From: Escherichia coli
GTDB lineage: Bacteria; Pseudomonadota; Gammaproteobacteria; Enterobacterales; Enterobacteriaceae
Length of the DNA stretch: 64,000 nucleotides
Assembly: GCF_017348835.2 (NCBI RefSeq)
Contig: NZ_CP072317.1
Direction: 5' to 3' (one strand)
Of this stretch, positions 33,941 to 43,400 are shown piece by piece. Position 1 is the first letter of the stretch. Each line of letters begins with the position of its first letter. Both the position numbers and the translations under genes were made by a program. A model generated the notes under the pieces. That model saw only the letters and a program-made list of their open reading frames with translations, was not told where the DNA came from and did no database searches.

Positions 33941-34620
33941 CTGTATCTGATGTTTTCAGCCCCCATCATCTGTTGAGTTTCGGGAGCCGCGGTTTTGACG
34001 TTTTGCGGGGACCTGCCTTTTGTTCCCTCCGGTATTCACCATCACCTGTTTGAGAACCTTCGCCGCAAGGGGCATCACTGCCACGGCCTGACGCACCTGT
34101 CCTGGGCAGAACGCAAAATTTTTTACCGGGTTTTGGGTAAAAAATTTTGTGGGCTGTTCATTTACCCTGGACAGTCAGTGCGGCAGGTTGTGGCTGTCTA
34201 TGCCCCCGGCGACAGGGGCTTAAACAGGTGAATGGCACCGGACAGAACAACGGGCAGGGACCCGCCGCAACGACGTGAAGCGCGGTTTGCGAAACGGCGT
34301 TGCTCCTTACATCCCGGCGTCTTTTGCCGGGATGCCGGGAGCGCAGGCCACGGCGCGACAAGGGTGGCGCGACCGTTCCGGTCGCTGCAAACCCGGGTTT
34401 TTGCGTCAGGGATGGAAGCCCGCCAGGGCGGAGACAGCTTCGCTGGCTCCGTTCACGACAGCCCGCCCCGCCAGGGGGACGCCCGGAAAAGGCATAAGCA
34501 GGAGAACAACAAAACAGACAATAATCAGGGCAGCAGTAATCAGAGTCAGAGCAGTAATCAGAGTCAGAGCAGGAGGAAAAAGAGAATAATCAAAGGGAAG
34601 GTGATGTGATTTCTGGTAAG
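33941..34620 (+). promoter_or_regulatory. Frpo/ssi-like repeat unit, copy 1 (candidate single-stranded-DNA promoter)
   Basis: Near-identical to 39431-40110 and related to 42750-43400; contains a ~230-nt imperfect hairpin on the + (transferred) strand. Confidence 0.6.
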
Positions 34621-34846
34621 TCATAAACAGAGAAGGCGGGGGAAAAGAACGGGCGCCGCAGGCGCACGTTCATCCCCGTTCCCGGAGGGAAACGGCCTTC
34701 CTGGCAGTCTGGTTGTTCATGCCCGTACAATGCCAGCAAGGAGAAAGGGGCCACCGGCGAACCAGCAGCCCCTTTATAAAGGCGCTTCAGTGCAGTCAGA
34801 CCAGCATCAGCCCTGAAAAGGCGGGCCTGCGCCCGCCTCCAGGTTG

Positions 34847-35005
34847 CTACTTACCGGATTCGTAAGCCATGAAAGCCGCCACCTCCCTGTGTCCGTCTCT
34901 GTAACGAATCTCGCACAGCGATTTTCGTGTCAGATAAGTGAATATCAACAGTGTGAGACACACGATCAACACACACCAGACAAGGGAACTTCGTGGTAGT
35001 TTCAT
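34847..35005 (-). CDS. hok: Hok-family toxin (hok/flmA)
   Basis: Manual translation gives [52 protein letters not shown] (52 aa); below ORF-track size cutoff; GC hairpin 34821-34840 in 3' region. Confidence 0.85.
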
Positions 35006-35063
35006 GGCCTTCTTCTCCTTGCGCAAAGCGCGGTAAGAGGCTATCCTGATGTGGACTAGACAT
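34851..35063 (-). CDS. mok: Mok (modulation of killing) overlapping reading frame
   Basis: 70-aa ORF overlapping hok in another frame, as in hok/sok loci; sok antisense RNA expected on + strand about 35030-35110 but not delimited. Confidence 0.55.
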
Positions 35064-35284
35064 AGGGATGCCTCGTGGTGGTTAATGAAAATTAACTTAC
35101 TACGGGGCTATCTTCTTTCTGCCACACAACACGGTAACAAACCACCTTCACGTCATGAGGCAGAAAGCCTCAAGCGCCGGGCACATCATAGCCCATATAC
35201 CTGCACGCTGACCACACTCACTTTTCCTGAAAATAACCCGCTCATTCAGGCTGTTTACGGGTAATCTGTGTGATTGTTGCCGCA

Positions 35285-36004
35285 TCACGCCGCCTCCCGG
35301 AGTTTGTTCGGCACCATCCACCGCTCCATCTCACGGACAGCGTGACCGGCCTCTCTTGCTGCAAGACTGGCTTCCGCAATAACCTGCCAGAACGGCATAT
35401 CCTGCCACTGCCAGCGTTCCATTCCGGCCAGTGACGGAAAACGCTCACCCCACTGCCAGAACAGGGTTTCCAGGTCATGCTCTGCCACCCGGTCACTCCA
35501 GCGTGCATGCCAGCTTCCGACTGTTTCCGGCGAATGGAATGCCAGTTCGATTTCAGCCTGAGCGACCAGCGCCTGGTACGCACGGGCTTTCTGCTCTGCC
35601 TCCCTCGCCTGCTGGCGGCTGTACTTTTGCATGACCAGTGCGGATTTGTGGCGACTGCGCTCCCTGACACGGAACCGCACCGACGGGAACAGCCGCTCTG
35701 CTGCATCGCCGGGAAGGGGAAGAAGGCAGACCTCGCCCTGAGTTTCAATCAGCACATCGACGGCATACAGCCACTGAGAACGGTTGCCGCGCAGTTCTTC
35801 TGCGGTCAGGGACGGCATGAAAAATCGCAGGTCAGACAGCGATATCCTGCGGCTTCCGTTCAGACAGCGGAAAAACGCCCCCGCATACGGATATTCCGCC
35901 AGCGTGTTTCCCTGGTGGCGGCGTTTTTCTGTCTCCGCCACCGCCCGCCATGCGGCCTGTTGCTCTGCGCTGAGGGGAACCAGTGCCTGTGAACGTGCGC
36001 TCAT
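35285..36004 (-). CDS. psiA: PsiA plasmid SOS inhibition protein A
   Basis: 239-aa ORF, stop/start coupled to psiB. Confidence 0.9.
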
Positions 36005-40824: not shown

Positions 40825-40870
40825 ATCATTATCTCCGTCATCCCCCGGGGATTTCCCGGGGGGATATACC

Positions 40871-42232
40871 TTATTTCTGTGGGATTTCCGTGATTTTCAT
40901 GTCGGTGATATACACATTCACCAGACGGAAATTATTGTCCATTGTGCGGCGGTAGCGGTATGCCCCGTGGTCTTCTGCTTCTTCCACACTGCGCACGGCC
41001 TTACAGTCCCGGGGCAGGGCGGCCCACTGCGCCTTTGTCATTTCCCGGAAACCTTCCCCCGGATAGTTGACTACCGGCGGACGCTTCGCGGCCTGACTGG
41101 CGACGGCAGCCTCTTCTGCCGATGGTGCTTTGTAGTCCGTGATGCGATCGGGCGTCACTTTCATCGTGCCGCTGTACCCGAGAAAACTGTAATTTGGCGT
41201 TGTGACTGAACTCACCGCCCCGTTGCTTTTGTTCACGCGGATGATAGTCAGCCACTCGCCCCGGCTGAAAACCTGTCCGCCCGGCTCAAAATCCTGTGTC
41301 CGGGTAACCACGCCGCCGCTTTCGTCCAGCATGGCACGCTCATAGATCAGGCGGTTCTGATAGTGGTTAACCCAGCGTTGCTGATGCTGAATCTGCCGTT
41401 CATGACAGCGGATCGCAATTTCGCGGGCCTGCTCCGTGGTGATGATGTCATCATCCAGGGCCGACCATAACGACCGGCTCCCTTCATACTGGCTTTTTTC
41501 TGCCGGGCGCGGATACGTATCCAGCGGGAAACAGGCGCTGATATGGTCATGACTGCTGATGAGTTTTGCCATATTCAGATCCAGCGATTCAGCCCGCCAC
41601 ATCGTCAGATATTTCTGCGACTGTGCGATGGTCTTTTCAGCCTTGCGCAAATCAGCTTCGATTTTTTTGATACGACGCCAGCGAACGTCCGGGCGTTCTT
41701 TATACTTCGCGTGAAGCAGTGCCGACCGCGCCCGTTCTTCCCAGTATTCCGCACGTTCAAAGAGCATCACGGCACGTTTCATGCCGTTTTCAATACGCTG
41801 CGCATCACGACGGGCGCGGCGTTCGCTGTGATGCCCCACAAGAATGGGCTGACCGGGCGGGATCATCGCGGCCAGTCTTTCCACTTCATCAAGTGCCTGT
41901 GCGGATTCACTGGCCCGCTTTCCGCTGTATCCGGTAAACCGCTCCGCCCGTGCTTCCTGACGTTCAGCGAGCGTGCTGTCTTCATCCTCAATCTCTCCGG
42001 CAAGTGAGAGGAGCACGTCTTCCCGGCCCGGTGTCCAGGCTGGCGCGACAAACAGCGCCTGTCTGGGTGCCCAGCGGAAACCGGCATCATGCACTTTTTT
42101 ATACGTCTCCGGGTCAAGACGTGACGCGGCATACAGGCGCAGTTTGTTGTCATCCGGTGAGTAGGTCGCGCGGTACATCTGCACAGGGCTGGCGGCTTCC
42201 GGGGCGGTCATGGTGATTGCAGCTAATGTCAT
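40871..42232 (-). CDS. hypothetical leading-region protein (453 aa)
   Basis: Long ORF with good coding continuity between the 76-aa ORF and the methyltransferase. Confidence 0.55.
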   Translation of the reverse strand: MTLAAITMTAPEAASPVQMYRATYSPDDNKLRLYAASRLDPETYKKVHDAGFRWAPRQALFVAPAWTPGREDVLLSLAGEIEDEDSTLAERQEARAERFTGYSGKRASESAQALDEVERLAAMIPPGQPILVGHHSERRARRDAQRIENGMKRAVMLFERAEYWEERARSALLHAKYKERPDVRWRRIKKIEADLRKAEKTIAQSQKYLTMWRAESLDLNMAKLISSHDHISACFPLDTYPRPAEKSQYEGSRSLWSALDDDIITTEQAREIAIRCHERQIQHQQRWVNHYQNRLIYERAMLDESGGVVTRTQDFEPGGQVFSRGEWLTIIRVNKSNGAVSSVTTPNYSFLGYSGTMKVTPDRITDYKAPSAEEAAVASQAAKRPPVVNYPGEGFREMTKAQWAALPRDCKAVRSVEEAEDHGAYRYRRTMDNNFRLVNVYITDMKITEIPQK

Positions 42233-42283
42233 AAAATGTTCTCCTTCCGTCTGTTGCCGCCCCTCGCGGGGCGGCTCACCTCA

Positions 42284-42514
42284 TCAGTTAAAAGCGCGTT
42301 TCAGTTCGAGTGTGCGGAGCACCTGCCCGAAAGCCGTATTTTTCATGGCGGGGATGTGTACACCACGTCCCCGGTGAAAACTCCGGGCAATGTGTCGCCC
42401 GAAGGCTTTCAGCACGGGGTCAATTTCCGGCGCGGGGATGTCTTCGCGTCTGAAACGGGGATGACGGCGGGGCTTTACAGCCGCTGCGGAAGGTGAAACA
42501 ATACTTACCGTCAT
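42284..42514 (-). CDS. hypothetical basic small protein, first ORF 3' of Frpo-like copy 3
   Basis: 76-aa ORF. Confidence 0.4.
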   Translation of the reverse strand: MTVSIVSPSAAAVKPRRHPRFRREDIPAPEIDPVLKAFGRHIARSFHRGRGVHIPAMKNTAFGQVLRTLELKRAFN

Positions 42515-42749
42515 AAATGAAACTCCTTATGACTGTTGAATGGAACCGCAGAAACTGCTCGAACAGTTTTTGCGGTGTGGATTAAGCAGGTCCTCCCCGG
42601 CCTGCTTTTTTCATATCTGCGTCTGACGTTCTCCGGTGTTTTCCTCCTTCTGTTCCTGCGTTCTCATTACCTGCCAGCCGGATGACTGACAGAACAAATA
42701 AATGCGTATTGCCGGAGCCTGAAATAAATCCTGATTTTTAAAGAACATC

Positions 42750-43400
42750 ACCCGTTGAGTTTCGGGAGCCGCGGTTTTGACGTTTCGCGGGAACCTGCTG
42801 CTGTATTCCCTGTGGTATGAACTTCACCCGTTTGAGAACCTTCGCCGCAAGGGGCATCACTGCCACGGCCTGACGCACCTGTCCTGGGCAGAACGCAAAA
42901 TTTTTTACCGGTTTTTGGGTAAAAAATTTTGTGGGCTGTTCATTTACCCTGGACAGTCAGTGCGGCAGGTTGTGGCTGTCTATGCCCCCGGCGACAGGGA
43001 CTCATACGGGTGTGTGGCACCCGGCAGGCAATGAGCAGGGGCCCGCCGCAACGACGGAGAGCGCGTGCGCGAAACGGCGTTGCCCCTTACATCCCGGCGG
43101 CCTTTTGCCGGGATGCCGGGAGCGCAGGCCACGGCGCGACAGAGGCGGCGCGACCGGAACGGTCGCTGCAAGCCAGGGGTTTTCACGCATCGGACCGTAG
43201 CGGCAGCCCGAAACCGCGCCAGCGGGTTCGGCGGAGACTGGCAGGTGCGCCAGCAGCTGCCTGTCGGAGTCGGGCCTGACGACCGGATGCCGCCAGGCAG
43301 CCGGGAGCCGAAGGTGCGCCCGGCAGACAGAACAACACTGCAGTAGTCAGAATCAGAGCAGTAGATAAAGGAACAACAACATCAGGAACAGTTCCATAAC
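42750..43400 (+). promoter_or_regulatory. Frpo/ssi-like repeat unit, copy 3 (diverged)
   Basis: Shares the long hairpin core with copies 1 and 2. Confidence 0.55.

Follow-up and report, generated by a model that had tools for sequence, protein, structure and literature searches.

Three class 1 Frpo/ssi-type hairpin repeats, probable single-stranded-DNA promoters, within the leading region of an R100-like IncFII plasmid

We analysed a 64,000-nucleotide (nt) stretch of Escherichia coli DNA (contig NZ_CP072317.1 of assembly GCF_017348835.2; hereafter the window), which is an R100-like IncFII plasmid and carries three direct repeats, u1, u2 and u3, ahead of three operons on one side of its origin of transfer (oriT). 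Many IncFII plasmids of E. coli, Klebsiella and Salmonella, among them pCTXM3_020032 (NZ_CP034964), share the region around the repeats at 100% identity, and a 680-nt unit matched R100 at 100% too. An initial annotation had read the repeats as promoters of the Frpo/ssi type, hairpins that would fire on the single strand entering the recipient cell during conjugation. Our analysis supports this reading, and the element that it rediscovers is a known one. The coordinates of the features are given in Table 1.

The strand that enters the recipient can be read from oriT. An exact match to the R100-type recognition and nic sequence of TraI (TTTGCGTAGTGTGT/GGTGCTTT) is found on the + strand, occurs once in the window and is expected 0 times by chance. 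For F- and R100-like TraI relaxases, the oligonucleotide of the nic site is the cleaved strand, and transfer proceeds 5' to 3' from the nick. Because the nic sequence is on the + strand, the + strand is the transferred strand, as had been claimed, and enters 5' to 3' towards higher coordinates; by the same strand and direction, the part of the window above 31.8 kb forms the leading region. The units u1, u2 and u3 lie 2.2, 7.6 and 10.9 kb from the nick, respectively. Below about 31.6 kb, the minus strand carries the tra genes (traM, traJ, traY onwards), and it also carries the annotated leading-region genes between 32.7 and 47.6 kb, except for two small hypothetical open reading frames (ORFs). 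The transglycosylase gene adjoining oriT (31805-32407) is on the + strand. Between this gene and the DUF932 gene of the first operon we found a homologue of F ssiE (D90180) on the + strand at 32402-32590, with 91.6% identity across all 190 nt. At 32652-32707, between the ssiE region and where the DUF932 gene ends, there is a perfect 56-bp palindrome (28-nt arms, no spacer) whose G+C core is bordered by A/T runs and which has the look of a bidirectional terminator.

An uninterrupted stretch of 586 nt is the same in u1 and u2, which are 98% identical across about 620 nt, and the 5.5 kb of spacing between them holds hok/sok, psiAB and ssb. For the two F copies the reported identity is 92%; the perfect 586-nt match here suggests that gene conversion occurred recently. 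The third unit ends its similarity at 43183, beyond which it shares with u1 and u2 only a short tail motif at 43340-43399. Three direct repeats are thus present at essentially the places given in the initial annotation; its unit size of about 650 bp holds for u1 and u2 and is too long for u3, which matches only over 42746-43183. The inverted repeat GCAAAATTTTTTACC / GGTAAAAAATTTTG, named there as the paired arms, is found in u1 at 34113-34127 / 34136-34149 and at the equivalent positions of u2 and u3. The pattern has only these three sites in the 64 kb, each also read as its reverse complement, and shuffled sequences gave an expectation of 0.

The "variable repeat tail" of the initial annotation turned out to be a hexamer or 18-mer microsatellite. 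Unannotated minus-strand ORFs for hydrophobic peptides of 72 amino acids (aa; 34406-34624) and 75 aa (39882-40109) run over the tails, with a common C-terminus ...LLLMPFPGVPLAGRAVVNGASEAVSALAGFHP and with N-terminal halves encoded by the variable microsatellites. The frame is open in F too, with no consistent start codon. The exact sequences were absent from a collection of 15 billion proteins, and the one ORF tested against NCBIfam had no match. We did not adopt these ORFs as genes.

Each unit is predicted to fold on the + strand into a long imperfect hairpin. The single-stranded DNA fold of u1 had a free energy of -90.5 kcal/mol compared with -48.8 +/- 4.1 kcal/mol for shuffled sequences (z -10.2), and that of u3 had -86.8 kcal/mol (z -8.7); these energies are from 328- to 331-nt folds, and the hairpin z values across all folds ranged from -8.7 to -11.7. 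The imperfect hairpin of the initial annotation is therefore far beyond chance, but its length of about 230 nt was too short, since about 319 nt are paired when enough flanking sequence is given, near the 328 nt that PMC7690428 gives for Frpo. The GC-rich segment that had been set apart from the hairpin is partly its basal stem, and the remainder forms two small accessory stem-loops, which are found in all three units and in F, and partly in the ColIb and Salmonella relatives. A search of the window with Rfam gave no family that covers the hairpins; the matches were only to AS-pc01, sok, FinP, the traJ 5' untranslated region (UTR), CopA, AS-traI and AS-traG. Apart from the first two, these matches are typical of IncFII and are at 1348-1424, 10815-10900, 30899-31008 and 62847-62937 (AS-traI, AS-traG, FinP with the traJ 5' UTR, CopA).

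We then examined the conservation of the stem in an alignment of ten members (u1/u2, u3, F Frpo1 and Frpo2, ColIb ssi1-3, one Serratia and two insect-metagenome sequences), a small set in which some members are closely related. The consensus hairpin was paired in 93.1% of the alignment cells, compared with 37-45% when the partners were slid by 1-3 columns, and compensatory changes on both sides were seen in 14 of 41 pairs, compared with 2-4 in the slid controls. For four of the five measures, none of 500 shuffles attained the observed value, and for the fifth, the count of further pair types, 85 did. The signal is clear and argues for a stem that has been maintained by selection through compensatory changes. 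The different parts of the stem are conserved in different ways. In the helix at alignment columns 119-131 / 247-259, the proposed spacer, 7 of 11 pairs covary; in the helix with CCCTGGAC the sequence itself is conserved among family members; and a GGGG/CCCC helix is invariant among the ten. An internal loop between the GGGG/CCCC helix and the covarying helix is present in all members. Compared with u1 and u2, u3 has the same promoter core save one loop base, and its basal stem differs with compensatory changes.

The repeats are homologous to the published elements. Using BLASTN, we compared the window with the five Frpo/ssi sequences in Supplementary Table 2 of PMC11541004, and F ssiD/Frpo (D90178) aligned over its full length on the + strand with u1 and u2 (88% over 355 positions, E 4e-125) and with u3 (79% over 340 positions, E 5e-73). 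ColIb-P9 ssi2 and ssi3 (AJ238399) aligned on the + strand over the central 81-96 nt at 77-80%, and the Serratia and insect-metagenome Frpo' sequences also aligned on the + strand. The check that the initial annotation had proposed, alignment to Frpo and ssi, thus found similarity over the full length for F and over the core for ColIb. Plasmid F has two class 1 copies, Frpo1 upstream of the ygeA homologue and Frpo2 upstream of ssb, and both alignment and synteny match the positions of u1 and u2 to them. Homologues were found in at least 5000 plasmid records, at about 2.7 places per record.

The genes downstream of all three units are on the minus strand, as had been noted, and are templated by the transferred + strand. 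The u1 operon encodes a 98-aa protein and a DUF932 protein. In the u2 operon, ssb, psiB and psiA are all present on the minus strand, but the order "ssb-psiB-psiA" is not contiguous, with yfjA and yfjB between ssb and psiB. The gene yfjB, recently renamed herB, is interrupted. The ORF that adjoins psiB (36504-37079) had no SSB-family match and is not ssb; by its position and length, it is probably the distal part of yfjB. At 37084-37153, where yfjB is split, there is a 50-bp palindrome consisting of two IS10 outer ends (CTGATGAATCCCCTAATGATTTTGGTAAAAATCATTAGGGGATTCATCAG), with the 9-bp direct repeat GGCAGAGCG on either side, exactly at the Tn10 position of R100. It looks like the scar of a "nearly precise excision" of Tn10, and the same scar sequence is common to many clinical IncFII plasmids at 100%. 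The u3 operon encodes a 76-aa protein, a DUF3560 protein and a methyltransferase. The claim that each unit lies directly 5' of its operon does not hold for u3. The gap in front of the u3 operon holds the gene for the antisense RNA AS-pc01, which overlaps the start and 5' leader of the 76-aa ORF and has its own terminator. Because its template is the minus strand, AS-pc01 cannot be made from the incoming single strand; as a speculation, the u3 operon might be freed from AS-pc01 control only during entry.

Table 1. Positions of the repeats, their parts and the surrounding genes in the window
Feature	Coordinates	Strand	Remarks
Repeat unit u1	33948-34533	+	positional homologue of F Frpo1
Repeat unit u2	39424-40009	+	positional homologue of F Frpo2
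Repeat unit u3	42746-43183	+	89% identity over 441 nt
u1 Frpo-type hairpin, ~319 nt	33977-34295	+	DNA folds, z -10 to -12
u2 hairpin	39453-39771	+	DNA fold
u3 hairpin	42759-43075	+	DNA fold
Two accessory stem-loops 3' of the u1 hairpin	34310-34334, 34369-34385	+	DNA folds
A/T-rich apex of u1: GCAAAATTTTTTACC, 8-nt loop, GGTAAAAAATTTTG	34113-34150	+	putatively UP-element-like
TGGACA, putative -35	u1 34168-34173; u2 39644-39649; u3 42950-42955	+	5/6 against TTGACA
TGTCTA, putative -10-like	u1 34195-34200; u2 39671-39676; u3 42977-42982	+	mismatch/internal-loop segment
Variable tail of u1	34522-34620	+	microsatellite, 18-mer x2.3 (34532-34572, period 18)
Variable tail of u2	40025-40081	+	(CAGTAG)x9.5
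oriT TraI recognition/nic sequence, R100 type	31793-31814	+	exact match
u1 operon	32704-33932	-	98-aa protein gene, DUF932 gene
98-aa protein	33636-33932	-	YeiA in UniRef; F ygeA position
DUF932 protein	32704-33525	-	
u2 operon	34847-39445	-	ssb, yfjA, yfjB, psiB, psiA, then hok/sok
ssb	38879-39445	-	NF010292, E 2e-116; SSB profile begins at ORF residue 14
yfjA (DUF905 gene)	38588-38827	-	
yfjB/herB (ParB-like), interrupted	37106-38527 and 36504-37079	-	
psiB	36001-36438	-	
psiA	35285-36004	-	
u3 operon	40261-42514	-	three genes, below
76-aa protein	42284-42514	-	
DUF3560 protein	40871-42232	-	
Class I S-adenosylmethionine-dependent methyltransferase	40261-40824	-	
AS-pc01 antisense RNA gene (Rfam RF02875)	42509-42610	+	89.7 bits against a gathering score of 79

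Taken together, these data suggest that u1, u2 and u3 are class 1 (Frpo/ssi-type) single-stranded-DNA promoters of this R100-like IncFII plasmid, a reading to which we give a probability of about 0.9, with the activity on single strands assigned by homology. The function of the homologues has been published (PMC9849209, PMC12672017, PMC11541004, bioRxiv 10.64898/2026.01.09.698686). F Frpo and ColIb ssi3 are transcribed by sigma-70 RNA polymerase from the single-stranded and not from the double-stranded form, as cited in PMC9849209, PMC12672017 and PMC7690428. Deletion of Frpo1 or Frpo2 of F abolishes the early production of the downstream proteins (Couturier et al. 2023, PMC9849209), and early, transient (zygotic) induction has been reported for Frpo1 and Frpo2 of F (PMC9849209) and for ssi1-3 of pESBL (PMC12672017). 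For u1, u2 and u3, single-strand-specific activity, zygotic induction and priming are expected by analogy with these F and IncI homologues.

By this analogy, the + strand would enter the recipient with its 5' end first, from a nick at about position 31807, and each unit would fold on it into the imperfect hairpin of about 320 nt. The stem would mimic a duplex sigma-70 promoter, with the 5' arm as the template and the 3' arm as the non-template strand. Read from the loop to the base, it would offer an A/T-rich, UP-like apex, TGGACA as the -35 element, a spacer helix of about 20 bp, a mismatch or internal loop as the stand-in for a melted -10, and the GGGG/CCCC helix. The host RNA polymerase would start on the 5' arm and run to lower coordinates with the incoming strand as its template, transcribing the 98-aa and DUF932 genes from u1, ssb, yfjA, yfjB, psiB and psiA from u2, and the 76-aa ORF and the DUF3560 and methyltransferase genes from u3. 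The same transcripts could prime the synthesis of the complementary strand, and once the complement was made, the hairpin would be lost and the promoter would be off.

The elements of such a promoter can be placed on the stem. Samuel et al. described Frpo with UP, -35 and -10 elements (PMC11541004), and because of their UP element we read the A/T-rich apex as UP-element-like. In each of the three units, a relaxed hexamer scan gave TGGACA as the 3' arm's only 5/6 match to a -35 hexamer. Its first T faces T or G in most members, the F-type copies and ColIb ssi2 among them (alignment columns 145/230: GU in 5, GC in 2, other in 3), which suggests that this T is kept for its base identity rather than for pairing. 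TGTCTA is a weak match to TATAAT (2/6) and is flanked by the covarying spacer helix and the invariant GGGG/CCCC helix, past which a 3-nt bulge (caa) is found on the template arm. The inactivity of the duplex form would be explained by a weak -10 that needs its region to be unpaired beforehand. We infer from these features a layout of -35, spacer, pre-melted -10 and start region, and the exact positions given for the three elements are putative. The Frpo2 fragment of Samuel et al. drove anti-CRISPR expression from the T strand (PMC11541004); it contains the apex, TGGACA and the loop segment and stops before the basal 3' arm, and this extent fits a promoter read from the loop to the base. Between TGGACA and the apex, the 3' arm has a conserved 8-nt bulge (TTCATTTA). 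We considered this bulge as the -10 and rejected it, there being no -35 at a workable distance upstream.

Several observations weigh against reading the units as promoters of this kind. A consensus sigma-70 scan of 33600-34700 found no promoter-like site, and a relaxed scan found no canonical -10 hexamer 16-18 nt from any -35-like hexamer. The search for -35 and -10 elements in the folded stem, which the initial annotation had recommended, thus yielded the TGGACA on the 3' arm and no canonical -10, and because the consensus scans gave no site, the promoter layout rests on conservation and structure. An alternative orientation also exists on the 5' arm (TTGAGA, 17 nt, CATCAC), which would make the 5' arm the non-template strand and the promoter read towards the loop. 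We set this orientation aside because the Samuel construct lacks the 3'-arm partner of TTGAGA and the ColIb relatives also lack the TTGAGA hexamer, both of which disfavour it only indirectly. Both strands fold equally well, so that folding does not select between them, and the strand was assigned from the nic site and the orientation of the genes. Finally, u3 is about 230 nt from its first ORF, with the antisense RNA gene in the gap.

The comparison with F also showed that repeats mark the ends of one gene module. The 3.3-kb module of the 76-aa, DUF3560 and methyltransferase genes is absent from F and is exactly the interval between u3 and u2, and because the module fills this interval exactly, F and the plasmid of the window differ by an insertion or deletion with its ends in the repeats. 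The Frpo2 unit of F (F 9860-10700 compared with 39380-43600 of the window) resembles u2 towards ssb and u3 towards klcA, with alternating patches between. Frpo2 of F looks like a recombinant of u3 and u2 without the module.

Other explanations of the repeats were weighed against the promoter reading. The units could be mainly ssi sites, at which the hairpin provides an RNA primer for the complementary strand and the expression of downstream genes is secondary. The element was originally isolated as ssiD, and priming of DNA synthesis by Frpo RNA is known in vitro (Masai and Arai 1997, as given in PMC7690428); priming from ssp1/Frpo has been reported in vivo (bioRxiv 10.64898/2026.01.09.698686), and a second ssi, the ssiE homologue, lies nearby. 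Nonetheless, we consider it doubtful that priming is the main role, because the loss of early downstream proteins on deletion of either F copy (PMC9849209) and the place of every unit upstream of an operon on the correct strand speak for transcription. Priming and transcription are one act, so that an ssi role is added to that of the promoter and is not an alternative to it. It is unlikely, in our view, that the repeats serve chiefly as substrates for homologous recombination, that is, as borders of exchangeable cassettes of promoter and operon whose identity is kept by gene conversion. The identity of u1 and u2, higher than that of the F copies, the mosaic Frpo2 of F and the module that fills exactly the interval between u3 and u2 would all be expected on this view, as would the analogous deletion between Frpo repeats that has been published for IncI plasmids (PMC3817090). 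Recombination accounts for the mosaic pattern; it does not account for the conserved hairpin, the covariation or the fixed orientation to oriT, and it is a consequence of having repeats rather than the reason for their structure.

It appears improbable that the element works as RNA once the plasmid is established as a duplex. Here the 320-nt hairpin, carried by read-through transcripts, would terminate transcription or attract RNase III and so insulate the leading operons, as the equally good folding of the minus-sense strand and the two stem-loops formed by the accessory segment when folded as RNA (z -2.65) would allow. In the sense orientation, however, the hairpin is not followed by a U-tract terminator; terminator-like matches were at chance level only, and the conserved mismatches on one arm are left unexplained. 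That the repeats are functionless products of a recent segmental duplication, as the perfect identity of u1 and u2 taken by itself could suggest, is hardly credible given homologues in so many plasmid records, and it is refuted by the divergent IncI, Serratia and metagenomic relatives with compensatory changes in their stems.

The promoter reading may be extended to a larger unit, which we propose tentatively and hold to be rather doubtful. In this extension, a cassette junction of about 460-620 nt, made up of the hairpin, the two accessory stem-loops and the frame-preserving hydrophobic micro-ORF or hexamer microsatellite, would be a scaffold homogenised by gene conversion through which IncF plasmids gain and lose early operons, and u3 and AS-pc01 would form a two-layer switch. 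If this were true of u3 and AS-pc01, expression of the operon would last as long as the plasmid is single-stranded, and repression would set in with the double-stranded form.

The three units are members of a well-characterised family; they are already known in this sense and bring no new principle. Frpo was reportedly described by Masai and Arai in 1997, and the ssi of ColIb-P9 is said to have been described by Bates et al. in 1999 (also by Nasim et al. in 2004), with three dispersed repeats in the 1999 work. Three Frpo-homologous repeats, R1-R3, were reported in 2013 in the IncI leading region of pO26-CRL125 (PMC3817090). The BLAST survey of Samuel et al. in 2024 listed 13,089 Frpo homologues in 6,006 elements (PMC11541004), Wen et al. 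in 2025 distinguished classes 1-3 and mapped start sites (PMC12672017), and Frpo promoters were found in 74% of psiB-carrying plasmids (PMC12826799). Our literature search found no paper naming a third class 1 copy, or early induction of the u3 operon, in R100-type plasmids. We rate the third copy as already known all the same, because at 89% identity it is within reach of the published BLAST surveys.

The biology of single-strand promoters is important and experimentally established for F and IncI. Frpo-type promoters explain how resistance plasmids express SOS-inhibition, SSB and anti-defence functions within minutes of entry, before the second strand is made. For the R100/IncFII backbone, which is clinically common, the present analysis adds locally the third class 1 copy with its DUF3560/methyltransferase module, the identity of u1 and u2, and evidence for an indel of the module between repeats.

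The criterion of Wen et al. (a 300-nt sliding fold of the + strand below -75 kcal/mol) was applied to 30-50 kb. Flagged were u1, u2 and u3, at 43020 a GC-rich stretch overlapping u3, and another two hairpins, each upstream of another leading operon. One of these (flagged window 44660-44959) corresponds to a class 2 homologue on the + strand at 44664-44999, with 81% identity to insect-metagenome Frpo' 4, 32-nt arms at 44671-44702 / 44878-44909 and a fold of -102 kcal/mol (z -5.3), upstream of an antirestriction (KlcA/ArdB-like) gene at 44209-44634. The other, a + strand hairpin at 47260-47559 (-91.9 kcal/mol per 300 nt; z -5.6 over 47225-47620), is upstream of a DNA methylase gene (46549-47232) and is a candidate class 3 single-stranded-DNA promoter. 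The class 2 (ssp2, called "Frpo3" in a codon-usage preprint) and class 3 (ssp3) promoters of F and pESBL follow the same logic as class 1, a long T-strand hairpin upstream of a leading operon, but have no sequence similarity to u1-u3. Class 2 has been reported to stall complementary-strand synthesis as a "roadblock" (bioRxiv 10.64898/2026.01.09.698686).

Among the closest known systems is the class 1 pair of F, Frpo1 (ssiD) and Frpo2, also called ssp1a and ssp1b. They agree with the units of the window in the hairpin of about 320 nt, in its strand relative to oriT and in the gene positions, and Frpo2 of F is nearly identical to these units in the core; one difference lies in copy number, with two class 1 copies in the leading region of F and three in this plasmid. 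Three dispersed direct repeats are likewise found in the IncI plasmids (ssi1-3 of ColIb-P9/IncI1, R1-R3 of pO26-CRL125 and the class 1 elements of pESBL), each a hairpin of about 330 nt upstream of a leading operon. The basal stems and the downstream genes of the ColIb-P9/IncI1 elements differ from those described here (ardA in IncI, DUF3560 and methyltransferase genes in this plasmid), whereas the apex, CCCTGGAC with its mismatched T, the bulge on the 3' arm and the architecture of the internal loop are shared with u1, u2 and u3.

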